Shown: in pieces, positions 14,770 through 29,331 of the stretch
Layout: each line of letters starts with the position of its first letter
Numbering within the stretch: position 1 is the first letter of the stretch
Virus record (IMG/VR): IMGVR_UViG_3300009073_000006
Location: 1 to 54,180 of that record
Direction: 5' to 3' (one strand)
DNA from: a virus
Length of the DNA: 54,180 nt
Notes under the pieces: generated by a model
Seen by the model: the letters and a program-made list of their open reading frames with translations, nothing else
Database searches by the model: none
What the model was told of the DNA's origin: nothing
Translations under genes and position numbers: made by a program

Positions 14770-16050
14770 ATGCCACCTATTAATGCAAATTCAGGGTGTC
14801 CACCCCAGACCGGACCTAACCTGACAGCCGCTGAAATTGAGCAAGCGTTTTGTAACGCGTTGCAGAACTGTATGCCGCAACCGCTAGAAGTTACTGCGGA
14901 CTCGGTTTTGACTGCTTTGCTTGAAAGTATTGCAGACGATATTATTGCGCAGTTGATTGCGACTGGTGATGATCTGGCTAATTCACTAGAAGATATTACA
15001 GTAACTATTGACACGTCGGGCGGACCTGTTGAGGTAACTGGAACAGTGTCTATTTCAGGCGATGTTACTGTTGACTGGTCTGGTATCCAAGATGCGTTGA
15101 ATGGACTTGAAATAGAAGTAACGAATTATCAAGATCTTGTTGATATTTTGACTGATCCGGCTACTACGCTGACGATTGATGGTTCGGTTACTGCTTTGAT
15201 TGATCCTACGCAGTTTGCGATTATCGAAGATTTGCTTGGCACAATTAACGACACGCTTAAAGCGATTGTTCGTAAAGATTGGGAAGTGATTGACTTCTGT
15301 ATCGTTGACGCTGATGGTGTTCCTGTTCCTTTAGTTGGGGTGTTTTCTGAACGCGGTTATGATTATCTAGGTAATCAGGTTTCAGAAATTGTTGTTTATT
15401 CAAAGTTTGATCCTACGGTTCCTGAATGGACTAGCTATGCGCTGCAAGCTGGTGATCAAGTTGTTGAGTGCTCTCGTCAAACAACAAATACTGTGCTGGT
15501 TATGGAAGGCTGTTATGAAGGCGCCGACGGAGAACTTTACCAAGGTTATTCTGGTATTAACAGCATTGACGGTACTCTCGCTTGGGGTCCGCTGGATAAA
15601 GGCGATCTGGGCTTTGTTGCGTGTTGTCCTAAAAAAGCTACTGTGCAAGCTTGCGTTAAGATGGAAGCTTTTGATTACTACTCAGAGAAAGAACTTGAAG
15701 CTGGACAAACTATGTCGTTTACCGTTAATGGCGGTGCGCCTATTGTGATTGATTATCTGGCTATCGGTGACGGTGTTAATAAGTCTTCTTGGTATGGTCC
15801 GGTTATTGCAGCGGTTAATGCGCTTGGTCCTTGGACAATGACGATAGACACTGACGCAGGTGTCGGAACTTCGCAGCGTCCGGTTTGGCAGATCGACTAT
15901 AACGGTGTTGGTGGCGAGTCACTAGTTATTACTCAAAACAGCGACACTCGGACAATTAGTGTTGATGCGGCTGGCGTTTTGACTAGCGAGGCACTTGGCG
16001 GTACTACACCGTTCGGCACTGATCCGTTTACCGCTTGTAGTGGTAAGTAA
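14770..16050 (+). CDS. tail fibre-like protein
   Basis: 426 aa with an AAGGAG RBS. Acidic, with T/V/D-rich beta-type composition. Lies in the tail cluster. Confidence 0.4.
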   Translation: MPPINANSGCPPQTGPNLTAAEIEQAFCNALQNCMPQPLEVTADSVLTALLESIADDIIAQLIATGDDLANSLEDITVTIDTSGGPVEVTGTVSISGDVTVDWSGIQDALNGLEIEVTNYQDLVDILTDPATTLTIDGSVTALIDPTQFAIIEDLLGTINDTLKAIVRKDWEVIDFCIVDADGVPVPLVGVFSERGYDYLGNQVSEIVVYSKFDPTVPEWTSYALQAGDQVVECSRQTTNTVLVMEGCYEGADGELYQGYSGINSIDGTLAWGPLDKGDLGFVACCPKKATVQACVKMEAFDYYSEKELEAGQTMSFTVNGGAPIVIDYLAIGDGVNKSSWYGPVIAAVNALGPWTMTIDTDAGVGTSQRPVWQIDYNGVGGESLVITQNSDTRTISVDAAGVLTSEALGGTTPFGTDPFTACSGK

Positions 16051-16389
16051 ATGAGTAACCCGCGCAAAGATTTAAGTGTTGAAAAAGAAAAAGTTCTTGA
16101 ATTTTTGCGCGGGTTTATTAAATATGATTTTTGTAAAAAGCTGTATATTAACGGCAGCCGTTCACCAAAATCAAAACGAAAGCCAAGAGAAGACAGCGAC
16201 TGGGATTTTTTGTGCGTTAGTCCTGAAGGTAAATACTTCATCATGAACCCACGAGATAACGGTCTGCATAGTGATATTGTAATAATCTGGGAAGATATGT
16301 TGCAACACTACTCCGCAGCTGTTGAAATTTGGCCCCAAGATAAAAGCGGCGAATTTGCCGAATTAGGAGATAACTATGCCGCCAATTAA
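16051..16389 (+). CDS. minimal Pol-beta-superfamily nucleotidyltransferase (MNT-like)
   Basis: YINGS-RSPKSKRKPREDS-DWDFLCV fits hG[GS]-x9-13-Dh[DE]h. A third acidic strand HSDIVII follows, and a helix precedes the motif. Confidence 0.6.
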   Translation: MSNPRKDLSVEKEKVLEFLRGFIKYDFCKKLYINGSRSPKSKRKPREDSDWDFLCVSPEGKYFIMNPRDNGLHSDIVIIWEDMLQHYSAAVEIWPQDKSGEFAELGDNYAAN

Positions 16390-16891
16390 ACCATGTTGTG
16401 AAAAAGATAACGTAGCTGTTGATCCGTTTGCAGATTACGAAGAAGTAGAACTGTTCGAGTACCGTGATATTTGGGCGGAAGAAAGTGGCGCTATGACTAA
16501 TAACTCTGCGGAGTGGTCATACGGTAATGGCGCTACTGGATTTATCGGACTACCTATTGATGCGGGATGGTTAGTAGAAAGCATGTACTTTCACGCGGAT
16601 ACTTACGCGGCGCGTACACGGATAGAAGTTGCTTTGCTGAATTACGGTAACACGCCTAGTTCTGCTGCGGCTAACAGGCTCACGTCTATCACGCTGGCTA
16701 ATGCAGCCGACGGCGGGGGACAAACTAACAATGCCTATAAAATGGTCAACTCTAATGATGTGCCTATTCCAGTAACCGGAACACATACTGTTATCGGGTT
16801 CCATACTGTGTCGTTACGCGGTGCTGCTAGTGATGGGCGTGTTGGTGCAAGACTTCGCAGAAGTCTCGGTTTCTTTCTTCGTAAAAAATAA
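16376..16891 (+). CDS. hypothetical beta-rich protein
   Basis: 171 aa with an AGGAG RBS, overlapping the upstream gene by 14 nt. Basic C-terminal tail RLRRSLGFFLRKK. Confidence 0.5.
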   Translation: MPPIKPCCEKDNVAVDPFADYEEVELFEYRDIWAEESGAMTNNSAEWSYGNGATGFIGLPIDAGWLVESMYFHADTYAARTRIEVALLNYGNTPSSAAANRLTSITLANAADGGGQTNNAYKMVNSNDVPIPVTGTHTVIGFHTVSLRGAASDGRVGARLRRSLGFFLRKK

Positions 16892-16902
16892 AGGATAATC
16901 AA

Positions 16903-17691
16903 ATGAAAACGTTTCAAAAAGGTTCGGGCGATAATACGCTAGTTTATCCTTTAACTCAAACTGCTTTAGGTAATTTGATACCTAGCAAACTAGCTTCTCC
17001 ACGTGTGGGTAAACCTCACGGTATTGTATTGCCGCATCAGTATAGCACTGTCGCAGGTTTGACTGAAATGTGTGATGAAGTTATTTATGCACATGCGCAA
17101 GTTCGCCGAGGTGAAATGCCTTGGGGGTTTTTGCGTAAACATTGGGACAATAGCTGGGGAGAGTTTCCTGAGTTTCCTGAATTGTTAAAACGCGAAGGTT
17201 TGTCTATTCGCAACCCGCAGGGATTAGCTAACATTGTGCATATGGATAAACCGTGGCACTTGTTTAGTGCTATGCAAAGCTGGTTACTCTCAACAGGCGC
17301 TTTACCTAAAGAACAAATCAGCCCAGAGCATAACGATTTTCTATCCAAAGTAGTGCATCCGATGAACAAGTTTAGCACGCTACTTAGTCAATGGATGGAA
17401 ATGGCTTTTGAGGCTAAGTATTATTTCGGCAAACCTCGCCCCGAAGAAATGCAAGGTACGAACGTTAGCTACTATCCAGAAGGTTGCCCTACGCACCCCG
17501 AAGTACCTCCCGGCCATTCTGTCACTTCTTGGGGTGCAGTTAAGTATTTCCAAGATCACTGGCATTTGACTGATGAACAATCTGCCGCGCTTGTAGCTGC
17601 TGGGTTTTACTTTAGTAACGCGCGTAGTTTTTCTCTCGTTCACTACGGTCCGGCTAATCGCCTTGGTCGTGTTATAGTTGGGTTGGATTAA
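16903..17691 (+). CDS. PAP2-superfamily enzyme, acid phosphatase / vanadium haloperoxidase-like, soluble
   Basis: All three PAP2 motifs are present with correct spacing: KYYFGKPRP (K-x6-RP), 21 aa, PPGH within THPEVPPGHS, 34 aa, ARSFSLVH (R-x5-H). No transmembrane segment is evident. Confidence 0.7.
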   Translation: MKTFQKGSGDNTLVYPLTQTALGNLIPSKLASPRVGKPHGIVLPHQYSTVAGLTEMCDEVIYAHAQVRRGEMPWGFLRKHWDNSWGEFPEFPELLKREGLSIRNPQGLANIVHMDKPWHLFSAMQSWLLSTGALPKEQISPEHNDFLSKVVHPMNKFSTLLSQWMEMAFEAKYYFGKPRPEEMQGTNVSYYPEGCPTHPEVPPGHSVTSWGAVKYFQDHWHLTDEQSAALVAAGFYFSNARSFSLVHYGPANRLGRVIVGLD

Positions 17692-17694
17692 CCA

Positions 17695-18072
17695 ATGAAC
17701 TTTGCGCAAAATTACGCAGGTCGATTGATCGGTTTCATCTTGTTTATGACTGTGATTTGTGGCCTAATGTTTGGACTGTTTTACTACGCAGATGCAATAA
17801 ACGAAACAGTTAAAACAATAATGATCGTGATTATCGGGTTGTTTGCAGAACCTGCAACTACTGCGTTTAAGCGAATCGCTGATCCGGCGGCTAATGACTT
17901 GACTAAATACGAAGAAGAAATTCAAAAGCTGCGCTCTGAAATACATGAGTTGCGGATTGAAACTAACGCACGAGACGAGGAACAACGTCGGATTATTAAC
18001 TTGCTTCTTGCACGAGACGAGGAACAGAAAAACCCGTCACTCAAAATAACTAAACAAAAAGGTACTAACTAA
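17695..18072 (+). CDS. membrane protein with C-terminal coiled coil
   Basis: 125 aa with two hydrophobic helices (LIGFILFMTVICGLMFGLFYY and IMIVIIGLF), followed by the coiled coil EEEIQKLRSEIHELRIE and a repeated ARDEEQ. Confidence 0.55.
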   Translation: MNFAQNYAGRLIGFILFMTVICGLMFGLFYYADAINETVKTIMIVIIGLFAEPATTAFKRIADPAANDLTKYEEEIQKLRSEIHELRIETNARDEEQRRIINLLLARDEEQKNPSLKITKQKGTN

Positions 18073-18698
18073 TGGCACAAAGAACTTCAGGAAATCCTGC
18101 TAACCCTTCGGTTGGTGATCCAATTCGTAACGCTATTTTTCGCGACCCTAATGCAGTAAAAAGCTATAAAGGTGTACACGGACAGATTGGCTTTTTACTC
18201 TGCGCAGGTAATATGCGCGGTATCTTGTTTGATGGTAAAACGTGTGGTGGTGTGGCGCACTGGCCTTTGTTTGCTCCCAACAGCGACTTCTCAAATTTCT
18301 ACGCACTAGCTGACAACTGTCTTGACGTTAGTGCGCTGATGGACGGTTGCCCGCCAGAAGATGAAGAACCAACTGACGAAGAAATCGCACTTTGCGCATC
18401 AACAAAAATCGGCGCTGACTTAACAACAGGTAACTCGCAGTTGTCTTGGGACGGTGTTCTGTACTCAAGTTCCACAATAACAATCTCTAATGTTGTAGGT
18501 ACTTTGACGGTTACTGACTCGGCAGGCGTTGATCATGTACTTCCGCAGGATGGAACAGTTGTTAGCGGAGTAGCTGCTGGTGCAACAACAGGTGCGGTGT
18601 TTGATGGTACTTATGACGTTACTAACGAAGACGGGCTAACAGCAAGTTGCGAACAAACTGCCCGAGTTACTTCTGCATCGGTTATCGTACTGCTTTAA
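18072..18698 (+). CDS. tail-fibre-like protein with Mtd_N-like N-terminus
   Basis: GILFDGKTCGGVAHW parallels GVLSVHDGKTCGGIFHY of gene 7445. An acidic linker CPPEDEEPTDEE also parallels that gene. TAATG overlap with the upstream gene. Confidence 0.5.
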   Translation: MAQRTSGNPANPSVGDPIRNAIFRDPNAVKSYKGVHGQIGFLLCAGNMRGILFDGKTCGGVAHWPLFAPNSDFSNFYALADNCLDVSALMDGCPPEDEEPTDEEIALCASTKIGADLTTGNSQLSWDGVLYSSSTITISNVVGTLTVTDSAGVDHVLPQDGTVVSGVAAGATTGAVFDGTYDVTNEDGLTASCEQTARVTSASVIVLL

Positions 18699-18724
18699 AT
18701 TAGAGCAACGATAGCTTATCTAAA

Positions 18725-18762
18725 CAGCACAGGCTTCCTCCCAGCTTGTGCTGTTTTTGTTT
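18725..18762 (+). terminator. rho-independent terminator
   Basis: CAGCACAGGCT, loop TCCTCCC, AGCTTGTGCTG, then TTTTTGTTT. Confidence 0.75.
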
Positions 18763-18923: not shown

Positions 18924-19394
18924 ATGACTGATTATTCGTCCGATAAAGAACTAACCGACTTAGATGTAAGTCAGTACAATATTGTCACATACGAACGTCC
19001 CGCCGAGGCTATTGGAGTGATTGCTACGTTGCTGCATTTTGATTATCGTTATGCTAAAATGCCAATGTCTCAAGTTATTAATGAAATCACTTCAAGTGTA
19101 GCTGGAAATAACTACGTTGTAGTTGTTCGTCAGGTTGGTGAGAAAATTCAACCAGTTGCTTTGCTTGGTTGGAAGTATGTTAACGAATATACTTTGCTTT
19201 TACAGGCTAATGATATCAGACCGCTTTCACCTGCGGAGTCTAATCAAGGTGATATTTGTTTGCTTAGTGTTTTTAGTAGTCCTTTTTCTTCACCTCATCA
19301 AATGATGGAGTTTATGCAAGAAAATTCTAAAAAATTACAATCACTAAAAGGGGTGGTAGGTCTTGACAGTTTATTCAATCCAGTGCAGTATTAA
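18924..19394 (+). CDS. HlyC/CyaC-like toxin-activating acyltransferase-fold protein (tentative)
   Basis: 156 aa. By-eye alignment to remembered HlyC/CyaC sequences: AIGVIATLL, MP, NNYVVVV, PVALLGWKYVNE, QGDICLLSVFSSPFS against LG.V.WLW, WP, QYVLL, PVAYCSWA, GDRKWFIDWIAPFG. The canonical His and Asp are not obviously conserved. Confidence 0.4.
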   Translation: MTDYSSDKELTDLDVSQYNIVTYERPAEAIGVIATLLHFDYRYAKMPMSQVINEITSSVAGNNYVVVVRQVGEKIQPVALLGWKYVNEYTLLLQANDIRPLSPAESNQGDICLLSVFSSPFSSPHQMMEFMQENSKKLQSLKGVVGLDSLFNPVQY

Positions 19395-20236: not shown

Positions 20237-20839
20237 ATGGGCGTGTTAGATGATTTTTTTCTAGGTCGTAATCGTGAACGTAGACAACTCGCATCTTCAC
20301 AGTTAGAAGATTTGCGTAATGCTAAGGTGTTGGCTTTAACAGAACGCGGCGCGTTAATTGAAACCGCTGATCGACGGGCTAGTACAATGGGTGCTGCGAC
20401 TGCACTGTTGCGAACTACTGGCGGATTACCTGAAGGGTTTTTTACAAAAGCTTCGCGCGAAAGCCTTGTTGCTTTTAGAGGCGATACAGGTAAAGAGACC
20501 GCAGGTTTACTAGCTTCGCGTGGTATCGGCAAAGGTAGTACAGTTAGTGATCTTGCAGGCGCTTTAGGTAGCGGCGGAGAAGCCGCTTCTTCTAGCAGAA
20601 AAATTGCGGAAGAAATTGATCTTTATCTTAAAGAAAACCGTAAAAACGGTAGAGCTAACGCGTCAAGCACTGGCAGTAGATTTGGCGGTTCAACTAGCCC
20701 GTTTTCTTCTGGTCAATCTAATCCTACGCAAAGCTTCCAAAAAGGTTATGGTTTAGTTAATTTGAATAATGATAACGAAGATATCAATGACTTAGGCAAG
20801 TTTCTTGAAAATCTTTTTCCTTCAACTCGGCGTTACTAA
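20237..20839 (+). CDS. hypothetical protein (ejection/internal virion module)
   Basis: 200 aa with a GGGAGGA RBS. G/S/A-rich and probably disordered. Confidence 0.45.
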   Translation: MGVLDDFFLGRNRERRQLASSQLEDLRNAKVLALTERGALIETADRRASTMGAATALLRTTGGLPEGFFTKASRESLVAFRGDTGKETAGLLASRGIGKGSTVSDLAGALGSGGEAASSSRKIAEEIDLYLKENRKNGRANASSTGSRFGGSTSPFSSGQSNPTQSFQKGYGLVNLNNDNEDINDLGKFLENLFPSTRRY

Positions 20840-20840
20840 A

Positions 20841-21767
20841 ATGGCAATGATTAACGATCCTAAAGCTTTGGCTATTTACCGTGATTTTAACGCGCGGGTT
20901 TCTGCTGCGCAAACTCAGCGTGTAGAAGGTCGTCGTCCGCAGATTAGACCTCAAGGTTTAGTTAATTCTAGCTACGTTAGCGCAGACGATAGGGATATTT
21001 TAATTCGTACTGTTATCGGTGAAGCTAACGGCGAGTCAATGACTGGACAAGCTGCTGTTGCTCACAACGTTTTAAACCGCACTCGCGATAGTCGTTATCC
21101 CGACAGGATTAAAGATGTTGCTTTACAAAAAGATCAATACTCTACTTGGAGAGACCCTAATGCTCCAACTGGCGACGCTTTAATCGGCGGTAACAGTTTA
21201 GCCACGCGTTATAATCCTGGAGATAGACAATACGACCGCGCTGCGGAAGTAGTTGATTTAGTTTTATCTGGTGAAGTTCCTGATATGACTAACGGTGCTG
21301 TTAATTATTATGCACCTAAAGGTATGCGTAATGGTATGGCTCCCCGATGGTGGGCTAGTAAGCTTGCTGAAAGCGGCGGAGAGTTTATTACTATTGGCGG
21401 TCACAGGTTTGCAGGTAAAAGTAATAATCTTGGCGCTCAAGTGTTTGACACTAGTGGACTAGGATATGAAGTTAATCTTGATGAAAAACCCGTAGGCGAT
21501 GTTTACGCCGATCCTGATAAGTTTCGTCTTGATACATCTATTCGGTTATCTAATGAGGCTTCTGTTAATCTTGGCAATGCGCGTAATACTAATCGCAATT
21601 CGTCGGATACACCTTCAACAGACTACGATCCAGACTACAGTGATTTAATTGCTCAACTTCAAAACAATTCTAGAGAACCGTTGCAACGTAACGAGTTGTT
21701 TCACTCGATGGTTAAAGAGCAACACAATCAACTTGACCGCGAAATTTCACAGAAGCTTTCGGAGTAA
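20841..21767 (+). CDS. SleB/CwlJ-type cell wall hydrolase domain protein (virion-associated lysin)
   Basis: Start trimmed to ATG 20841, right after the upstream stop. LIRTVIGEANGESMTGQAAVAHNVLNRTRDSRYPDRIKDVALQKDQYSTW matches the Hydrolase_2 signature, and NGAVNYYAP follows. Confidence 0.7.
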   Translation: MAMINDPKALAIYRDFNARVSAAQTQRVEGRRPQIRPQGLVNSSYVSADDRDILIRTVIGEANGESMTGQAAVAHNVLNRTRDSRYPDRIKDVALQKDQYSTWRDPNAPTGDALIGGNSLATRYNPGDRQYDRAAEVVDLVLSGEVPDMTNGAVNYYAPKGMRNGMAPRWWASKLAESGGEFITIGGHRFAGKSNNLGAQVFDTSGLGYEVNLDEKPVGDVYADPDKFRLDTSIRLSNEASVNLGNARNTNRNSSDTPSTDYDPDYSDLIAQLQNNSREPLQRNELFHSMVKEQHNQLDREISQKLSE

Positions 21768-21772
21768 AAAAC

Positions 21773-24175
21773 ATGGGCAAGCGACCACAAGCACGCGGTG
21801 ATAATACTGCTACTAAGCCAGCGTCAACTACTGCGCAAAGCAATACTGATTTGTTTGCAGCGTTTGCTTCTGCAAGTAATGATAAAACTGACCCACAACA
21901 ACTCGCGACTATTACAGGATTTGCTAGTAACTTAGCAACTCTGCAAGGAACTAACCAAGGTTCTTCAAAAGCGGCGCGAGATTTAGTTGAGGGCAGGCAC
22001 GCTAACAGCGCTGCAGTTTTAAATCAGTATGCGGCAGCAGGTGAAGAAATCACGCCAGAAATGCGCGGTATTATTGACGAGTTAGATAACCTTGCACACC
22101 ACGGTAATTCAATCTCTGGAATGGATGATCGTATTCGTATGCGTTGGTCTGGTGCTGGTGCAGGAACTTATGACATTAAAGCTTTAGAGCGTCGTGAAAG
22201 TGAATTAAATAAACAACTTGCTGATTTAACTCGCGGAGTAATGACAGAACCTCAACAGCTTGCTTTGCGTAGTGACCGAGCGAAAACAACTATTATTGAA
22301 AATCAAGCTGAACAAATTGCTGCGGCTGCGTCTCCTGCGGAAGTAGCCCGATGGGATAGTGTTTTAGATGAAATGACTATTCCGCAAATTGGTCAGATGT
22401 TATCTGAAGGTAAGCTGCAAGATATTCCAAGAGCCTATGTGCAAGATCGTCAGCAAGCAATGATAAAGAATAAATCTAACGAACAGATTAGCTTGCTCCA
22501 AGGTAACGTAGCCGCTAATGCTTTGCAAGCAGATAAAATTGCAGTTAATTATTCTGACCCACAAATTTTGATAAACCTTATTGACGAGTTTGACTTAACT
22601 AACCAACAGTTAATTGAAAACGGCGAACCGGCACTACGTGAAATTGATTTAGGCGCAGGTGTTGGTAAGTTTCCTGCGGGAATTGTCCATCAAGCTTTGG
22701 GATTGTTAGTAGAAGCTGATGAAAGTGGTCGCTTAGTTGGTAGCGGAACAGACTTAGATATTGCCACTAAAACAATGTTAAACCAAATAGGCGCAAGTAA
22801 TCAAAATCGTATTGGCGAGTTTTATTTAACTTTGCAAAGGATGGGTGTTGATATTAGCACGTCAAATAATCTCACCGCTGGAGTTCAAGCTGTTGAGGAT
22901 TCTTTAACCAGCGCTTTATTAAGAGGTGACTTAGAAGAAGCTGGTAAAGCCGGAGAACGACTTACTGACGAACTAGGTAAAGCGCGCGAAGAACTAGTTA
23001 AAGGTGCTGGACGTAATATCCCTGAACTGGAAGAAGCTTATCGCAGTTTATTTAACGTTGACGGGTTTACTAACCTAGGCATGGCACAGGATTATCTTGA
23101 GAATATTACCGATGATCAACGCGAAGTTGAAGTTACAGAAAAGTATAAAGAAGTCAATAACATACTAGAGATTTTAGAATCTGTTGAATTTGCTAGTGAC
23201 GCTGAATTATATTCTGACAATTCAGGACAAAGAACACCTGCTTCCGGTAGAGTGCCTTTGCCTTTACATAATCTTTTTTCTAACGATCCAAACGCACGAG
23301 CTAGTTTAAAACAGGCTTTCGTTGGTGAGATTACTAGTGATATCTTGATGCGTGGAATACGTGCTAGTTACGCTCAACTTGGTCAAGAGATTAGTGCGCG
23401 CAGTGATCTGCAAGACGGACAAAAAGCGGATATGTTAGAGCGTGTGCAAGCTATGCACGATGAAATATTTAACCCGATTACAGGAACAATAACAGGTTCC
23501 GCTGCTCGAAATTTAATAGGGCGCGTAGATTTTAAAGTAACTGACAGAGAAAATCCTGAAAGTACAGCAGGGGTTACTTTGCCTGACATGAATGGAAATC
23601 CTGTTCAGGTTAAGCAGTTGAATTTATCAGCGCTAACTGCGTTGTCTTTAGATCATCAGGCTACTTTAGTTGAAATGGGTATTGGTGAAGACGTAGCTAA
23701 TCCTTTAAAGTTTGCTTTTGATAACATGGAAAGATTTTCTGAAGAAGCAGCTGAAGCTTACTTGCCTAGGTCTGGTACAGATAAAGCGTTGCTTTCTATG
23801 TTCAGCGAAAGATATGCTAACAACGTTGCCGATCGCGAAGGTCGAGTAGTGTTAAGATCACTTGCTGAAACTTTAGGGAGTAGTTTAGAAAAGAACTTTC
23901 AAGATAGTTTTATTAATAAAGAGTTTGAAGAAGCTGATAGTGTTTTAGAGTTAGCTGTGAGTAATGATTTTGAAAGTAGTTCGGTTTACGAAGAAGCTAA
24001 AAATAATTATCTTCGAGAGATTATGACTGATACTGCTGCAAATAATATTTCTCAAGGTAAAGCTTTGTTCGACCCAGAAGCCGCGCCTATTGAAAGACCA
24101 ACTGCTCAGTTCTTATTAAACGAAGGTTTTTTAAGCCGACAGCAACTTAGTGATTTTAACCGCCAAGGAAACTAA
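21773..24175 (+). CDS. internal virion / ejection protein (large, helical)
   Basis: 800 aa, A/E/L/Q-rich. Occupies the position equivalent to the podovirus core proteins. Confidence 0.4.
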   Translation: MGKRPQARGDNTATKPASTTAQSNTDLFAAFASASNDKTDPQQLATITGFASNLATLQGTNQGSSKAARDLVEGRHANSAAVLNQYAAAGEEITPEMRGIIDELDNLAHHGNSISGMDDRIRMRWSGAGAGTYDIKALERRESELNKQLADLTRGVMTEPQQLALRSDRAKTTIIENQAEQIAAAASPAEVARWDSVLDEMTIPQIGQMLSEGKLQDIPRAYVQDRQQAMIKNKSNEQISLLQGNVAANALQADKIAVNYSDPQILINLIDEFDLTNQQLIENGEPALREIDLGAGVGKFPAGIVHQALGLLVEADESGRLVGSGTDLDIATKTMLNQIGASNQNRIGEFYLTLQRMGVDISTSNNLTAGVQAVEDSLTSALLRGDLEEAGKAGERLTDELGKAREELVKGAGRNIPELEEAYRSLFNVDGFTNLGMAQDYLENITDDQREVEVTEKYKEVNNILEILESVEFASDAELYSDNSGQRTPASGRVPLPLHNLFSNDPNARASLKQAFVGEITSDILMRGIRASYAQLGQEISARSDLQDGQKADMLERVQAMHDEIFNPITGTITGSAARNLIGRVDFKVTDRENPESTAGVTLPDMNGNPVQVKQLNLSALTALSLDHQATLVEMGIGEDVANPLKFAFDNMERFSEEAAEAYLPRSGTDKALLSMFSERYANNVADREGRVVLRSLAETLGSSLEKNFQDSFINKEFEEADSVLELAVSNDFESSSVYEEAKNNYLREIMTDTAANNISQGKALFDPEAAPIERPTAQFLLNEGFLSRQQLSDFNRQGN

Positions 24176-24177
24176 AC

Positions 24178-27100
24178 ATGACCGAAAGTATTTTCATTGA
24201 CCCGCAAGAGTTTGCTAACGAAGAAATAGTTAATTATCATCGAGAGCGTCGTCGCAATCAGAGGATTAGTGCGGGTTCAATAGCCTTTGCGCCTGTCGGG
24301 GCTGTAGCTGGTGGTTTAGATACTATTGGACAAAGCTTAGGTATTGTAGACGATCAAGACTTTGAAAGATTCTTTAACGGTCTAAACGAAAACGCTGGCG
24401 ATATGTATAAGCGCAACAAAGTGGGCTATCGTTTTGCAGGCGATGTAGCTAGTATGTTTGTAGGCGCTGGGGCAGCAAGTAAGTTGTTACGATCTGGCGG
24501 AATGATAAGTAGTGTTTTGCAAAAAGGTGGTAGTGTTGGTCGAGCTATTGACAGAACTGTTTCAATTAATCAAAGCAGAGTAGATGATCTTGTTCAAGAG
24601 TACGCGAAGTTTAGTGAGGTTGTTGGAAGCAACGCTGCGCCGGGTACTACCACATTTGCTCACGGAAGAAAGCTGCGTAGTCAGGCACGCCTTGCAACAG
24701 CAGCTAATGATTTAAGGGGTGGTTTGGCGGCAGAAGCGTTTATCTTTGGCGCTATGAGTGAAAGCGAGTTATTCTTTCCAGAAGGTCAGAAGACTAGCGA
24801 TATGGTTTATATGTCAGCGGCAGGATTAGGTTTAGGTGGTGCGCTAGGTCAGTTGTTTATTACGCCCGCGTTAAAGCGTGCTGGTGGTCGTGCTGCGCGT
24901 GAAGCGTTAGAGCGTGGAGATATCATTTCAGACGACGCTGGATTAGACTTAGTAACTGCTAGTAAAATTATCGACGAGACTTCACTCGGTGTTCCTGTTG
25001 ACATACTAGCTGACGCGCCAGAATTGCAAGGTACTTTTAATAATCTAAATTCTGCGGCCCAGAATAATGCACGTAAAGCTACTGAACAATTAACAGAAAA
25101 CTCACCGTTAGGTGGTATGTCTAGTAATGTCACAGTCACGCAAGGCGTTGTTGATACTGTTTTAGATGTAGCGCGCGGGAATGATAAAATGATCGCTAAT
25201 ACATTAAGTATTGAAACTGGCGATACGTTGTCTGATTTTGTTAACAAAAGCGCAGCCGCGGTTAAGAAGTTAGAAAAACAACGCGACGAGTTAAAGGCTT
25301 CGCAAGCTGATGCGGCTAATGATGCGTTACGGAATAAACTTAACGGTGAGTTGATTGATATTGATACGCAGATTAAAAACCTACAAGGTGATGCTTATGC
25401 TGTGCGTGTTAGTAGCGTTGGTAACTTGTCAACTAATCCTAACCAGCCTACTATTTTCGACGGCGGTAAAGTTAAAGTATCTAAAGTTAACAACAAAGTC
25501 AAAGGCGCGGGTAATGAAGTGTTTTACGCTTCAGAGGGTAGCAAGGATACTACTTTAGGCGTGACTACTGACGGTCGAATTGTTCGTGGAAATAAGCAGA
25601 TTAGCACAACGGCTGGTTTAAGTGTTCGCGAGATGACTAAACCCTACGCTGCTATGGCAAGAGCGCAAAAAAACTTAAGCAAAACTTTAGCCGATGATAG
25701 TATCATAGTTAAATCTCGCCACAAGATTACAAAAAACAGTAATCACATGACGTTTGATTATATAATCGAAGCGGCTAAACGTTTGAACTTAGAAGACGAT
25801 TTAAGTCCGTTGGATAAAATGTTTGACACTAGTGAGTTTGGAACTCTTAGTGCTTTGAAAAAGGCTAGTTTAGACGCGAAGCTTAAAGAGTTTGGTAAGT
25901 TAAAAGCTGCGCAACTTAAAGCACTAAAGTCGGGACAAGACCTGTATAACAGCGAGTCTATTGGTGCGATTTTAAATCTAAAATTTAGTGATAACTTTAA
26001 CAGCAATAACTACTCTTTGCAGTGGTTTGAAGATTTATACCGTGCAGGTAAAAAGACTGTAGGTAATGACTACGTTGAGGCGATGGAAGACTTTAAACAG
26101 CATCTTAGTCTGGGCAGCACTAAAGGTACTTCCGCGCATTTGCTTGCGGAAAAAGGCACAGGGATTGAAAGATTAATTGAGACTGATTTATTTAAACGCC
26201 TGAAAAATCCGCAAGAACCTTTGACATTTATTGTCAGCAAAAGCGGTCGTGTTGATAACAGTATGTTTGATACGCATAACTTAATTGATATTAAAAAGCG
26301 TCACGAACAATTACGCGAAAACGAATTAGGTGAAGCTGTTCGGACTACTGCTGGCGCAGAAATGTTTGGTCAAATTGATGATGCGTTAATTAATAGCCCG
26401 ATGTTGACTAAAGCGATGCGTGATGGAAGTAAGGTTATCTCACAAGACGCTGTTGATCAACCGTTGTTTGATAAGTTCGGTCAGCTTACGCCGTTTAGTT
26501 TGAATTATTTATTGCGTGGTGTTGAAGGTGCTGACAGTGCTGGAATTATTGCGGATATCTGGCAAAGACAAGCTAAAGTTTTTGCTGCGAATGAATTAAA
26601 AAATAATACTAAAGCTATGAACAAGCTGCGCGTTAAAGGCAATGAAGAAAGTGCTGCAAGATTTCTGCATTATCATTCTGCTATGCAACAAGGCTGGGTT
26701 TTAGCTGATAATTTTGTTGAAAGCGGCAGAAGAATTAAACTCGAACCTGAAAACAAAAAGAATAAAAAGATAGCAGAACAAATGGGACTTAAACAAGTTC
26801 CTGAGTTTATGCCTGATCCAGTTGCACGTAATGGTGTACCGTTAATTATGGATGAATTATCGCTGGCTGCTTTGGCAGAAGTGCGACGCTTTAGTGATAT
26901 GCGATGGAGTATGGATAACGTTTTAGCAAAGCACCTAGGTCGCAGTGGTTTGCAATATCGCAATGGTCACACTATTGAGCCTAGTCGTTACGGTAAAGAA
27001 ATGGTGTTTATTACTGACGAGTTTGGTAAGGTAGTGGATTATATTACCGAAGGTAATATTGTTCAAGGTAAGAAACTGGCTAATCAAAGGATTGCCGAAC

Positions 27101-29331
27101 TTATGAGGCAGCGATCTCAAGGAGATCAATTAGAAGTTGTTGTTAACGGTAAAACTGTAATTAATGAAGGTGAAAAAGTTCCAGTTTACAATGAGAAGGG
27201 TAACGGTGTTTACGGCATCGTTACTCGTGACGAGGTTGGTAAGTATAAGCAGGCTCACCAGCAAGCTTGGAACAGTGCGTATATTGACATTAGTGATTCT
27301 TGGAAACAAACTAGTGGTAAGAAAGAAGCAGGCGGTCGTTCGGGTTTGTATACTAATACTGATTTTATTGACGGCCAGTTGTTAGAGATTAGTGAGATGT
27401 TTGAAGAATCTGGGCGCAAGTTTATTGCGACTAAGTTCAGCGGCATGTTAGAGAATGTTAAAAACTTGCAACGAGTAGCTAATGTGCAGAAGCAAGGTTT
27501 GAGAAACTTTGTTACTGGTGAAGCTGGCGTAGCGTTTGATGATGCTTATGATATGTTTACTAATCAGTTGTTGAACACTTCGACAAGACATGAGGGTAGT
27601 TTATACGGTAGTTTAGGTATGACTATCGAGCATATTTTTGACACTACTGTTGGTAAGATGTTTGACGGTTTACATAGTATTCCTAAAACTGGCGGTAAAA
27701 AAGGTAACGCTGCGATGCAAGCAGCTTACGAGAAGCTGGCTAAAGAGACTGGATTTGATCCTGCGGAGTACGCTATTCGTATGGCAGAGCGTGGCATGGG
27801 CGAGAAGATGCCGCCAAATATGCTCAAGGTAATGCGCGGCGCTGCAAGCTTCACACAGTCAATGGCTTTGAAGTTTTTTGAAGTTGGTCACGCTGCACTG
27901 ACTAGTGCGAGTATTGCCACAACAGTACCGCATAACGTTGAATGGATGCGTCGTAATGCTGGTGAAAGTGTTGAAGCTTTTAAATCCAGAGTAGGTGTTG
28001 CGGGCGATTTGCTAGATGATGATTTTGCTGTGCCTAACGGCAGCAAGTTAGCTATGACTACGGTTATGAAGCATTTAAAAGGTGAATACAACGACGTGAT
28101 CGGCGAAGCAAGTAAGCTTGGTTATCTTGACAGTCAGATTGCGGAGTTTGTTAATGAATTAACTGCTCCTAGAAAAACTGCGCTGGGCAGAGGTGCTAAA
28201 AAGTTTGGCGACTTCGCGGGGTTGGTTAGTGGAAAATCGGAAGACTACGCAAGAACGATTAGTTTTTTAACTGGTTATGAAATGTTTAGTAAGCAAGGTA
28301 AAATTAATCCGAAAATGGCAATGGCGTTGAGTAATGATTTTGCCAATAAAGTTATTGCAGACTATCGCCCGCATCAAAGAGCCGAGGTTTTTAAAGGCGC
28401 TACTGGTATCCCGTTAGCTATGTTCCAAACGTTTGCGATTAACTACTTCCAACGGTTGTTGCAGAATGTCGAGAACAAACAATGGAAAGCTTTGGCTACG
28501 CAGTATGGTACGCAAGCTTTTGTATTTGGCGGAAGTAGTGTTCCAGGTTTTGAATTTATTAACGAGAAAGTTTTAGAAACTTGGGACGAGAAAGCTAGAC
28601 CAGAAGATTTAGTTCGTGATGGTTTTGGTAAAGGCTTGTCTGATGTTTTGCTATACGGGACTTTAGGTAATTTGCCAAAGTTGCTGGGTGCAGATGATGG
28701 ATTAGCGTTTCACACTCGCGGTGAAATGTCAGTGCCGAGGAATATTACCTTTGGCAACTTTACAGAAACACCCGTTGCACAGTTGGTAGCACGCAGCGGT
28801 AGTGCTATGCTTGAAGGGTTTAAAGCTGCGACAAGTAACGGCGATGTTGGTGGCAGGCAAAGACTGCAAGAAAGTTTAATTTACGCGATACCTAATCGTC
28901 CGGTTAAGGGATTGCTAGAGTACGCACAAGGTTACAGTACCAACCGCCGAGGCGAGATAATTAACGATGAAATTTCGGGACTTTACAAGTTTGCTCAACA
29001 GGTCAGCGGATTGAAAGCGTTGAGGGATGCTGACAAGGCCGCAGCGCTGTGGAGAGATCAGGAAACGCAAATGAGCCAGCGGAGTAGCATGTCACGACTA
29101 AGCGCATCTGTTGAGGCTGGTATGAGGGCTGGAGGGGTAGGTAATTTTTCATCAGGACAGATACAAACAGTGATGGAAAGATACTTTGCAAATGGTGGTA
29201 GTCCGCGAGGATTTAAAAGATGGTATCGTGAGCGGTTAATGCGTAGTCAGTATAGTCGAAGTGACCGAGCGTTACTTAGAGCGCTCGGCCAAGGTGATCG
29301 TGGTCAGGATATTTTGAGGTTTGCTGATTAA
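24178..29331 (+). CDS. giant internal virion / ejection protein
   Basis: 1717 aa and the last gene of the late arm, analogous in size and position to T7 gp16-class proteins. No enzymatic motif recognised. Confidence 0.45.
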   Translation: MTESIFIDPQEFANEEIVNYHRERRRNQRISAGSIAFAPVGAVAGGLDTIGQSLGIVDDQDFERFFNGLNENAGDMYKRNKVGYRFAGDVASMFVGAGAASKLLRSGGMISSVLQKGGSVGRAIDRTVSINQSRVDDLVQEYAKFSEVVGSNAAPGTTTFAHGRKLRSQARLATAANDLRGGLAAEAFIFGAMSESELFFPEGQKTSDMVYMSAAGLGLGGALGQLFITPALKRAGGRAAREALERGDIISDDAGLDLVTASKIIDETSLGVPVDILADAPELQGTFNNLNSAAQNNARKATEQLTENSPLGGMSSNVTVTQGVVDTVLDVARGNDKMIANTLSIETGDTLSDFVNKSAAAVKKLEKQRDELKASQADAANDALRNKLNGELIDIDTQIKNLQGDAYAVRVSSVGNLSTNPNQPTIFDGGKVKVSKVNNKVKGAGNEVFYASEGSKDTTLGVTTDGRIVRGNKQISTTAGLSVREMTKPYAAMARAQKNLSKTLADDSIIVKSRHKITKNSNHMTFDYIIEAAKRLNLEDDLSPLDKMFDTSEFGTLSALKKASLDAKLKEFGKLKAAQLKALKSGQDLYNSESIGAILNLKFSDNFNSNNYSLQWFEDLYRAGKKTVGNDYVEAMEDFKQHLSLGSTKGTSAHLLAEKGTGIERLIETDLFKRLKNPQEPLTFIVSKSGRVDNSMFDTHNLIDIKKRHEQLRENELGEAVRTTAGAEMFGQIDDALINSPMLTKAMRDGSKVISQDAVDQPLFDKFGQLTPFSLNYLLRGVEGADSAGIIADIWQRQAKVFAANELKNNTKAMNKLRVKGNEESAARFLHYHSAMQQGWVLADNFVESGRRIKLEPENKKNKKIAEQMGLKQVPEFMPDPVARNGVPLIMDELSLAALAEVRRFSDMRWSMDNVLAKHLGRSGLQYRNGHTIEPSRYGKEMVFITDEFGKVVDYITEGNIVQGKKLANQRIAELMRQRSQGDQLEVVVNGKTVINEGEKVPVYNEKGNGVYGIVTRDEVGKYKQAHQQAWNSAYIDISDSWKQTSGKKEAGGRSGLYTNTDFIDGQLLEISEMFEESGRKFIATKFSGMLENVKNLQRVANVQKQGLRNFVTGEAGVAFDDAYDMFTNQLLNTSTRHEGSLYGSLGMTIEHIFDTTVGKMFDGLHSIPKTGGKKGNAAMQAAYEKLAKETGFDPAEYAIRMAERGMGEKMPPNMLKVMRGAASFTQSMALKFFEVGHAALTSASIATTVPHNVEWMRRNAGESVEAFKSRVGVAGDLLDDDFAVPNGSKLAMTTVMKHLKGEYNDVIGEASKLGYLDSQIAEFVNELTAPRKTALGRGAKKFGDFAGLVSGKSEDYARTISFLTGYEMFSKQGKINPKMAMALSNDFANKVIADYRPHQRAEVFKGATGIPLAMFQTFAINYFQRLLQNVENKQWKALATQYGTQAFVFGGSSVPGFEFINEKVLETWDEKARPEDLVRDGFGKGLSDVLLYGTLGNLPKLLGADDGLAFHTRGEMSVPRNITFGNFTETPVAQLVARSGSAMLEGFKAATSNGDVGGRQRLQESLIYAIPNRPVKGLLEYAQGYSTNRRGEIINDEISGLYKFAQQVSGLKALRDADKAAALWRDQETQMSQRSSMSRLSASVEAGMRAGGVGNFSSGQIQTVMERYFANGGSPRGFKRWYRERLMRSQYSRSDRALLRALGQGDRGQDILRFAD

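Follow-up and report, generated by a model that had tools for sequence, protein, structure and literature searches.

A probable soluble PAP2-superfamily enzyme, related to vanadium haloperoxidases, encoded by an accessory gene of an uncultivated phage

The virus genome recorded as IMG/VR virus record IMGVR_UViG_3300009073_000006 (positions 1 to 54,180; this whole 54,180-nt stretch is called the window below) carries in its late gene module an open reading frame (ORF) for a protein of 262 amino acids (aa) with the three motifs of the PAP2 superfamily. We are highly confident that the product is a soluble PAP2-superfamily enzyme that is made in the cytoplasm and belongs to a large, previously unnamed family residing mostly in uncultivated phages. 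This family is very probably a half-size relative of the bacterial and algal vanadium haloperoxidase (VHPO) branch, in which an N-terminus of its own, about 100 aa long, replaces the first helical bundle. As to function, we tentatively favour, with a probability of about 0.4, an accessory PAP2-type histidine phosphatase that needs no cofactor and would act on phosphate groups of the cell envelope.

Motifs and conservation of the protein family

A preliminary description of this DNA, made from the letters alone, had reported all three PAP2 motifs with canonical spacing. The ORF was recovered exactly as delimited there (Table 1), and the reported gaps of 21 and 34 aa were confirmed when counted between the cores RP, PxGH and [SA]Rx5H, inside the accepted PAP2 ranges; between the longer strings quoted in that description they amount to 16 and 33 aa. 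The tripartite motif is non-random: the pattern K-x6-RP-x(12,54)-P-x-G-H-x(31,54)-[SA]R-x5-H matched once in a six-frame translation of the whole window and not once in 2000 residue shuffles of all ORF segments. The absence of transmembrane (TM) helices was likewise borne out, as the protein contains no hydrophobic segment (Kyte-Doolittle ≥1.6 over 19 aa), and no signal-peptide-like N-terminal extension was seen among 142 family members. The GC content of the gene is 44.7%, versus 42.5% for the window.

Searches with the single sequence yielded little. The protein scored 12.7 bits (E = 0.11) against Pfam PAP2 (PF01569), below the gathering cut-off of 27.2 bits and the lowest score among its close homologues; PHROGs and NCBIfam gave no match, and phmmer against the PDB returned nothing relevant. 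A large protein database contained 10 homologues of ~250-280 aa with 32-57% identity, all of them metagenomic. Pfam PAP2 was matched at E ≤ 0.01 by 9 of the 11 closest members, and family proteins P0161 (44.7 bits), P0047 (42.5), P0163 (41.6), P0005 (31.6) and P0012 (29.4) passed the Pfam threshold. We thus count the window protein as a PAP2 protein because family members pass Pfam, because it shares 32-57% identity with its homologues, and because of the profile matches described below. An exhaustive profile search of 1.84 billion representatives retrieved 1118 proteins at E ≤ 1e-3, 364 at E ≤ 1e-10 and 132 at E ≤ 1e-30. The family accordingly comprises at least 132 clusters at 50% identity, while the ~1100 relatives take in distant cellular VHPO and PAP2 proteins. 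Nearly all of the top ~130 matches were full-length (240-300 aa); from a metagenome scan, no more than about 13 full-length members were gained. Some members also bear a precomputed match to Pfam PF22778. With the window protein, P0012 and P0153 as queries, tblastn detected no family member in 50,697 GenBank phage records, which, together with the lack of a PHROG match, agrees with the earlier remark that this is not a standard phage late gene. Likewise, no phage PAP2 or VHPO enzyme was found in the literature searched, where results were mostly noise from "phage PaP2".

In alignments of 130-142 representatives, seven residues were invariant: D115, K172, R179, H198, H205, R241 and H247. The Lys and Arg of motif C1 were retained in all 139 aligned members, H198 in 139 of 140, and G204, which precedes the invariant H205, in 135 of 142. 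The position three residues before the Lys (K-3) is aromatic (F in 126 members, W in 6). The residues of the oxyanion pocket (K172, R179, H205, R241 and H247) all lie within the C-terminal ~160 residues. Judged from these alignments, the predicted site for oxyanion binding and histidine catalysis is intact and under strong constraint. The preliminary description had named a missing PAP2 profile match and poor conservation of the motif residues as outcomes that would speak against its assignment; what we found were matching profiles and seven invariant residues.

Relation to haloperoxidases and acid phosphatases

A profile built from 130 family sequences was searched against all PDB sequences. 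The best matches were the vanadium bromoperoxidase (VBPO) of A. marina (5LPC/8Q21, E = 3.7e-11), the Zobellia iodoperoxidase 4CIT (E = 1.1e-10) and the Corallina VBPO (E = 1.2e-10), followed by the class A acid phosphatase of E. blattae (E = 2.3e-9), PhoC (E = 5e-9) and PhoN (E = 1.5e-7). The membrane enzymes YodM/PgpB and LpxE reached only 3.6e-3 and 5.3e-3. Overall, E values ranged from 3.7e-11 to 1e-9 for VHPOs and from 2e-9 to 2e-5 for class A acid phosphatases, and were at least 3.6e-3 for membrane PAP2 proteins. The earlier assignment to the soluble acid-phosphatase/VHPO branch rather than to membrane lipid phosphatases is thus supported (3.7e-11 and 2e-9 versus 4e-3), as is the HPE-x-P-x-GH context on which it drew, which matches the VBPO-type block YPEGxPxHPxYxxGH. 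Motif C2 aligns with the stretch PEGSPMHPSYGAGHA of the A. marina VBPO, where H547 of the PDB numbering corresponds to the "active site His513" of PMC11871015.

Furthermore, a pattern scan of 185,579 species genomes revealed bacterial VHPO-like proteins of ~540 aa (in Paenibacillus, Rossellomorea, Sorangium, Acidobacteriota and others) that bear YPEGCPTHPSYPAGH and AEYVHxD and score 53-78 bits with the family HMM. Aligning the family with these proteins by hhalign gave a probability of 99.6% (E = 3e-24) over 162 collinear columns (105-266 versus 292-516 of 551), with the residue pairs D115/D288, F169/W348, K172/K351, H198/H412, H205/H419, R241/R478 and H247/H484. D115 is hereby aligned with the invariant Asp of the A-E-Y-V-H-x-D block of bacterial and algal VHPO-like proteins, to which weak additional domain alignments in the PDB search also pointed. 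We take this Asp, an aromatic residue or Arg at K-3 and a His or Phe at -7 to be second-sphere positions in VHPO structures, presumably equivalent to Asp292/Trp350/Phe397 of CiVCPO and His411 of AnVBPO; an extra His seven residues before the acid/base His is typical of bromoperoxidases. A His at -7 is absent from the acid phosphatase 7F18. The vanadate site of CiVCPO consists of Lys353, Arg360, Ser402, His404, Arg490 and His496 (PMC10278073). K172, R179, G204-H205, R241 and H247 align to the vanadate-binding positions of VHPOs, with Pro or Ala at the place of the Ser: the window protein has Pro, and 111 of 142 family members have Ala, as does the A. marina VBPO. The residue at K-3 was shown in PMC11871015 to tune the halide specificity of VHPOs.

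The AF2 model of the window protein (pLDDT 81, pTM 0.78) is all-helical after residue 45, with pLDDT below 65 for residues 1-40. In a Foldseek search of the PDB, the top 50 matches were all PAP2-superfamily proteins with probabilities up to 1.0, at TM-scores of 0.35-0.43 of the query and E ≥ 0.019. The N-terminal ~100 residues had no counterpart in VHPOs or acid phosphatases, and profile alignments begin at about residue 104. We also considered a correspondence between the N-terminal FxKG and the FSKGLPH block found in the bacterial VHPO-like proteins; this was rejected, as hhalign aligned nothing before column 105. A sister group (P0127, P0146, P0153, P0157 and P0143; 316-481 aa) shares an N-terminal FxKG..YP motif with the family, reads PAMHS instead of PAGHG and has an insertion of ~30 aa between motifs 1 and 2, as do the bacterial VHPO-like proteins; P0143 consists of two tandem copies. 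They may represent transitional forms that link VHPO-like proteins of full size to the mini family.

With VHPOs (A. marina 5LPC/8Q20-22, Corallina 1QHB/1UP8, Zobellia 4CIT and the uncharacterised ~540-aa bacterial proteins, such as those of loci L019-L071) the protein has in common the pocket Lys, Arg, (Ser/Ala)-Gly-His, Arg and His, the block YPEG(C/S)PxHPxYxxGH with the extra His at -7, the upstream Asp of A-x-x-V-H-x-D and the Lys-3 aromatic residue. However, VHPOs span 450-670 aa and have a two-bundle architecture whose N-terminal domain forms oligomers, whereas the mini family lacks the first helical bundle, the insertions of ~35 and ~23 aa between the motifs and any Sec/TAT signal (several bacterial relatives bear RRxFL twin-arginine leaders); it is phage-borne, and the window protein is devoid of the Gly and Asp around the ligand His. 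With class A acid phosphatases (PhoN, PhoC, E. blattae 1D2T, P. aeruginosa 7F17/7F18), which gave the best Foldseek matches, it shares a soluble all-helical PAP2 core of similar size and the same catalytic Lys/Arg/His/Arg/His. Those enzymes, in contrast, are periplasmic or secreted by means of a signal peptide that the mini family lacks, and read GSYPSGH where the family reads HPxxPAGH (HPEVPPGHS in the window protein). Moreover, S-R-x5-H-x3-D is incomplete in the window protein, which reads ARSFSLVHYGPA, the D115 block and the N-terminal domain are without counterpart in the phosphatases, and the alignment starts only at the Lys helix. Membrane lipid phosphatases (PgpB, LpxE/LpxF, BcrC/YodM) have the tripartite motif in common with the family, for which an envelope lipid-phosphate substrate is plausible, but the mini-family protein has no TM helices and the similarity is marginal (E 3.6e-3 to 5.3e-3). 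Among viral proteins, a similar predicted fold was found only in giant-virus PAP2 proteins (Hokovirus, Yasminevirus, Sylvanvirus; 485-637 aa, from eukaryotic viruses), as weak matches in the viral structure library BFVD (E 5e-3 to 7e-2, TMq ~0.4); no phage protein in BFVD matched the AF2 model. The protein is homologous to both VHPOs and class A acid phosphatases, and would work like them, but fails a defining feature of each.

These relationships bear on an alternative function, namely that of a genuine vanadate-dependent haloperoxidase, which would be the smallest known. Vanadate would be bound covalently to H247 and held by K172, R179 and R241; H2O2 would convert it to peroxo-vanadate, with H205 as acid/base, and a halide would be oxidised to hypohalous acid, whose targets would be molecules of the host or of competitors, signalling compounds or proteins of the phage. 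The best profile matches being characterised VBPOs and an iodoperoxidase, the hhalign result, and a family consensus (YPEGCPxHPxYPAGH) nearly identical to that of the VHPO-like proteins all argue for this function. So do the retained second-sphere positions D115 (142 of 142), H198 and the aromatic K-3 residue, the last of which tunes halide specificity in VHPOs, and the Ser to Ala exchange in PAGH that is shared with the A. marina VBPO. Against it stand a size of less than half that of characterised VHPOs, with the first helical bundle (~290 aa in the bacterial relatives) absent, TM-scores to VHPO structures of only ~0.4 of the query, the loss from the window protein of the Gly and the Asp found on either side of the vanadate-ligand His in VHPOs, and the lack of a phage VHPO in the literature searched. 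Furthermore, acid phosphatases share the first-shell residues, so that sequence cannot tell the two activities apart, and the supply of vanadate, halide and H2O2 in the cytoplasm of a freshwater host is doubtful. We consider a haloperoxidase unlikely but a serious rival, and its more specific form, a mini VHPO of ~260 aa that carries vanadate at H247 and generates hypohalous acid from H2O2 late in infection, more doubtful still. If the latter were true, the enzyme might consume peroxide in catalase-poor aquatic hosts, damage the envelope or neighbouring cells, or chemically modify, e.g., cross-link, the adjacent collagen-like or fibre proteins.

Genomic context and accessory nature of the gene

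The window is an essentially complete genome, ~54 kb long, of a podovirus-like phage, with a late module on the plus strand and a replication module on the minus strand (family A DNA polymerase, RecD-like helicase, PD-(D/E)XK nuclease and a DUF3987 primase-like protein). The strongest evidence on the status of the PAP2-like gene came from a related phage contig, L175 (ERR13858334_1811, 49.9 kb), with 46-70% aa identity over 15 structural proteins. Its gene order is a 381-aa protein (the counterpart of the 426-aa protein of the window), a 177-aa protein (counterpart of the 171-aa protein), a 115-aa protein with two TM helices and a coiled coil, a 203-aa protein (counterpart of the 208-aa protein) and an HlyC-like ORF; tblastn of the 20.5-kb stretch detected neither the PAP2-like gene nor the 112-aa ORF. 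Since L175 keeps the neighbouring structural genes without the PAP2-like gene, the latter is an optional insertion that does not belong to the core set of virion genes, and the 112-aa ORF, being absent at the syntenic place, is a second accessory insertion. Across 12 other loci the PAP2-like gene was usually the sole gene shared with the window, and the neighbours were without homology across most of them.

The place of the gene within the late operon, behind the head genes and ahead of a block encoding proteins of 320, 800 and 1717 aa, the last of which is homologous to a "putative structural protein" of phage Tiera, might suggest that the product is a structural core component of tail or virion, without which the particle could not be assembled. 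This role was rejected as highly improbable, largely refuted by the L175 synteny: every neighbouring structural gene is kept there, and elsewhere the gene lies in quite different modules of other phages among mostly non-homologous neighbours. The preliminary description had placed the gene "among tail genes". Its location in a late virion operon after fibre-like genes stood up to analysis, but no neighbour matched a PHROG or Pfam tail family and L175 lacks the gene. The tail label of the neighbours is hence an inferred one, with some comparative evidence in support of fibre-like neighbours.

In the window, the gene order is 426 aa, 112 aa, 171 aa, the PAP2-like gene, 125 aa, 208 aa and a hairpin, beyond which follow the HlyC-like ORF, genes for 266 and 200 aa, the Hydrolase_2 protein and the 800- and 1717-aa proteins (Table 1). 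The hairpin is the best terminator-like site in the 14-21 kb region and divides the late module into two units. Within the late module, the best candidate for a membrane protein is the 125-aa product with its two TM helices. The 171-aa protein probably has to do with fibres or receptor binding; in loci L013, L092 and L173, its place is taken by collagen-like or Peptidase_S74 fibre genes. PHROG and Pfam scans of ~30 neighbouring window proteins identified only the major capsid protein (MCP), the Hydrolase_2 domain and the borderline HlyC match. The immediate neighbours of the PAP2-like gene had no PHROG, Pfam or PDB tail-family match, and phmmer against the PDB with the 793-, 669- and 556-aa neighbours gave no matches.

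Table 1. Features of the PAP2-like gene and its surroundings (positions in the window)
Feature	Position	Strand	Remarks
ORF for PAP2-superfamily, VHPO-like soluble enzyme	16903..17691	+	ATG start; 262 aa; stop included in span
Shine-Dalgarno-like AAGGA	16891..16895	+	7 nt before ATG; overlaps stop codon of upstream ORF; read from sequence
Family-specific N-terminal region, residues 1-103	16903..17211	+	conserved F4-x-K6-G7, P16, P33, G36, P73
V112-H-M-D115 motif	17236..17247	+	D115 invariant, 142/142
PAP2 motif C1, K172-YYFGKP-R179-P180	17416..17442	+	KYYFGKPRP, residues 172-180
PAP2 motif C2, T-H198-PEVP-P-G-H205-S	17491..17520	+	THPEVPPGHS, 197-206; PPGH, 202-205; VBPO-type context
PAP2 motif C3, A240-R241-SFSLV-H247	17620..17643	+	ARSFSLVH, residues 240-247
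Ala251 replacing the usual Asp after motif C3	17653-17655	+	
426-aa fibre-like protein	14770..16050	+	domain shared mosaically with 799-aa protein of L007 (45% over 185 aa); 70% to 381-aa protein of L175
112-aa ORF	16051..16389	+	absent at L175 syntenic place; no Pfam, PHROG or NCBIfam match
171-aa protein, start MPPIKPCC	16376..16891	+	49% identical to 177-aa protein of L175
125-aa protein, two N-terminal TM helices and charged coiled-coil tail, holin- or i-spanin-like	17695..18072	+	no PHROG/Pfam family
208-aa protein, last gene of transcription-unit-like block	18072..18698	+	55% identity in L175
Intrinsic-terminator-like hairpin, 14-bp stem then T-run	18722..18756	+	consensus scan; in 226-bp gap after 208-aa ORF
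156-aa ORF, head of next block	18924-19394	+	borderline Pfam HlyC (RTX-toxin lysine acyltransferase): E = 2.1e-5, 24.8 bits vs cut-off 25, profile 2-109 of 127
320-aa protein with Hydrolase_2 (SleB-type cell-wall hydrolase) domain, then 800- and 1717-aa proteins	20805-29331	+	block kept in L175

Besides these genes, several further observations were made on the genome. Two projects had each assembled this ~54-kb genome, with its ends at different places, which fits a circular or circularly permuted molecule. Two other phage contigs of the same JGI sample, Ga0209187, have divergent family copies of their own (38% and 31% identity). These two observations concern the whole window and loci L001, L002, L092 and L100. 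Distant relatives of the genome, at 21-30% aa identity, are Pseudomonas 119X/PaP2-type podoviruses, Polaromonas phage Tiera and Caulobacter phage Kuura. Comparison with Tiera located TerL (52073), portal (23) and MCP (2751), and the 1717-aa protein was found to match, with its C-terminus, the putative structural protein of 1845 aa in that phage. The 320/800/1717-aa block looks like a podovirus set of internal-virion or ejection proteins. The 426- and 171-aa proteins both start with MPPI(N/K)..C, as does the 177-aa homologue in L175, which suggests, by analogy with interchangeable fibre and receptor-binding proteins, a shared N-terminal attachment module. The 112-aa ORF contains a GS...DSDWD stretch that resembles, by eye only, a minimal nucleotidyltransferase motif. 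The HlyC-like ORF is kept in L175 and lies just before the Hydrolase_2/800/1717-aa block; five homologues with invariant LLHFD and FSSPF were found. A PDB profile search gave no match for it, and its low-confidence AF2 model (pLDDT 56) had only weak GNAT-fold matches. A phage acyltransferase able to lipidate an ejection or internal protein would be unusual.

A possible role at the cell envelope

The neighbours and fusion partners of the family recur in kind. A small protein with one or two TM helices and a coiled coil adjoins the family gene downstream in the window and L007 and upstream in L008, L173 and L003. The versions in the window, L008 and L175 look homologous, and this protein is kept in phages with or without the PAP2-like gene, as exemplified by L175. 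The genes of ~100-140 aa directly upstream of the family gene across loci share no sequence homology, only the TM/coiled-coil architecture. Fibre-type genes are likewise frequent: the family gene directly follows collagen-repeat proteins in L013 and L092 and a Peptidase_S74 fibre protein in L173, and mosaic large, acidic, Cys-rich fibre-like proteins precede it in L003, L008, L009 and L092. Hydrolases form a third group. Peptidase_M10 is translationally coupled downstream in L003 (10743-11558) and fused to the PAP2-like domain in P0060; in P0064 the domain is fused to a lipoprotein signal, Peptidase_M43 and a TM segment. Peptidase_S8 adjoins the gene in L011 (8824-9999) and L098 (917-1879), Amidase_3 is adjacent in L017, and a class-3 lipase lies two genes away in L016. 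Hydrolase, fibre and membrane neighbours point towards envelope or extracellular chemistry, though they are not universal. For the recurrent link between proteases and the PAP2-like domain there is no obvious biochemical rationale.

Phosphatase activity is the ancestral, cofactor-free activity of PAP2 enzymes, and apo-VHPOs reportedly hydrolyse phosphate esters as well, a finding attributed to Hemrika et al. in PNAS in 1997. We thus propose that R179, R241 and K172 would clamp a phosphomonoester or pyrophosphate and stabilise the transition state, that H247 would attack to form a phospho-histidine intermediate, and that H205 would act as general acid to protonate the leaving group before water frees the phosphate. 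The gene would represent a moron-like optional element set between fibre-like genes and the 2-TM/coiled-coil membrane protein in the late operon. Candidate targets are phosphates of LPS (lipid A or core), the polyprenyl-phosphate carrier or a phosphorylated glycan; removal of LPS/lipid A phosphates could abolish divalent-cation bridging in the outer membrane. The envelope might be reached through permeabilisation of the inner membrane by the adjacent holin-like protein or by carriage in the virion, and the outcome would be an envelope or receptor that is weakened or remodelled at lysis or entry. The roles put forward in the preliminary description, dephosphorylation of a surface glycan or lipid during adsorption or halide-peroxide chemistry at the cell surface, are likewise hypothetical. 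Envelope-active accessory enzymes are known beside the lysis and fibre genes of phages, such as the mycobacteriophage LysB esterase and tailspike O-antigen deacetylases. The analogy is functional only: an optional hydrolase is encoded next to membrane, lysis-like or fibre genes and would act on an envelope layer other than peptidoglycan, while fold and chemistry are unrelated. A phosphatase of the PAP2 kind in such an envelope-accessory role was not described in the literature searched.

Several observations weigh against this proposal. The nearest relatives by sequence are haloperoxidases, not phosphatases, and D115 and H198, which are of the VHPO type, vary no more than the catalytic residues do. 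Without a signal peptide, access to the envelope would depend on a putative holin-like route or on virion carriage. The chance rate of TM neighbours is non-trivial, about 5-9 of the 63 window ORFs having a hydrophobic segment. Some family members lie in other surroundings: in L171, an early or replication-type region of a putative actinophage, the neighbours are Prim-Pol, RuvC-like and WhiB genes, and in L010, L093 and L094 members occur among small ORFs in non-structural, early-looking regions. Furthermore, a full-length chromosomal copy with 39% identity (L015, 7920-8861) was detected in a bacterium of the CPR (Gracilibacteria MAG JAHDHX010000001.1), on a 230-kb contig between housekeeping genes for leucyl aminopeptidase, release factor 2, PNPase and argininosuccinate synthase. 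An envelope role is thus not implied by every family context. To these points is added motif 3 of the window protein itself, which is incomplete, with Ala240 for Ser, Leu245 for Gly at H-2 and Ala251 for the Asp of HxxxD.

The varied surroundings lead to a second alternative, a cytoplasmic auxiliary phosphatase without an envelope role, whose substrate would be a soluble metabolite, nucleotide or signalling molecule. It could serve phosphate scavenging, nucleotide-pool remodelling or the countering of a nucleotide-based defence signal, and the position of its gene would simply be a permissive moron site. The lack of a signal peptide or TM helix across the family, the dispensability of the gene in L175, the 112-aa ORF as a further small insertion in this part of the window and the variable contexts, including the replication-like L171, the Gracilibacteria chromosome and L011, where the family gene adjoins ParB_N and ParB_N-methylase genes, are in line with this assumption. 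In contigs of Saprospiraceae metagenome-assembled genomes, members stand beside a Bro-N gene and an Amidase_3 gene. Against it speak the proteases, the amidase, the lipase, the fibre-like genes and the small membrane proteins that recur beside family members or fused to them. In addition, the searches made, among which PADLOC was not, gave no defence or counter-defence match, a survey of polyvalent proteins does not list PAP2 or phosphatase domains (PMC5512222), and no precedent of a soluble cytoplasmic PAP2 phosphatase was found. We regard this alternative as rather unlikely.

The departures in motif 3 raise the question of whether the lineage of the window protein and P0002 is catalytically crippled and retains an oxyanion- or phosphate-binding module or a decaying accessory gene. 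The window protein deviates from the family consensus by A203P, G206S, G245L, D251A and D119H, and its closest homologue P0002 (57% identity) likewise lacks G245 and D251; the lowest Pfam PAP2 score among close homologues fits the same notion. However, all seven invariant residues are intact, the ORF is full-length with a good ribosome-binding site, and the protein scores 290 bits against the family profile. Asp occupies position 251 in 103 of 142 members and is missing in about a quarter of the family, hence not obligatory, and 57% identity to P0002 with the active site kept speaks for purifying selection. Loss of catalysis therefore seems improbable. Since A251 removes the charge-relay Asp and L245 the Gly before the nucleophile, turnover of the window protein may nevertheless be slower than that of typical members, or altered.

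Taken together, the analysis defines a sizeable, hitherto unannotated enzyme family, encoded mainly by uncultivated aquatic phages in the collections examined. Should its members be ordinary non-specific phosphatases, the gain would be a modest one in annotation, and a plain accessory phosphatase is the likelier outcome. As a minimal natural version of the VHPO/acid-phosphatase site, the family could help to tell those parts of the large VHPO scaffold that phosphatase chemistry requires from those that halogenation requires; it might represent the smallest haloperoxidase scaffold, and it could give a compact biocatalyst. In biological terms, the accessory enzymes that phages carry beside fibre and lysis-type genes, so far proteases, amidases and lipases among others, would be joined by one directed at phosphate or oxyanions, with a possible bearing on outer-membrane destabilisation, receptor modification and host range.

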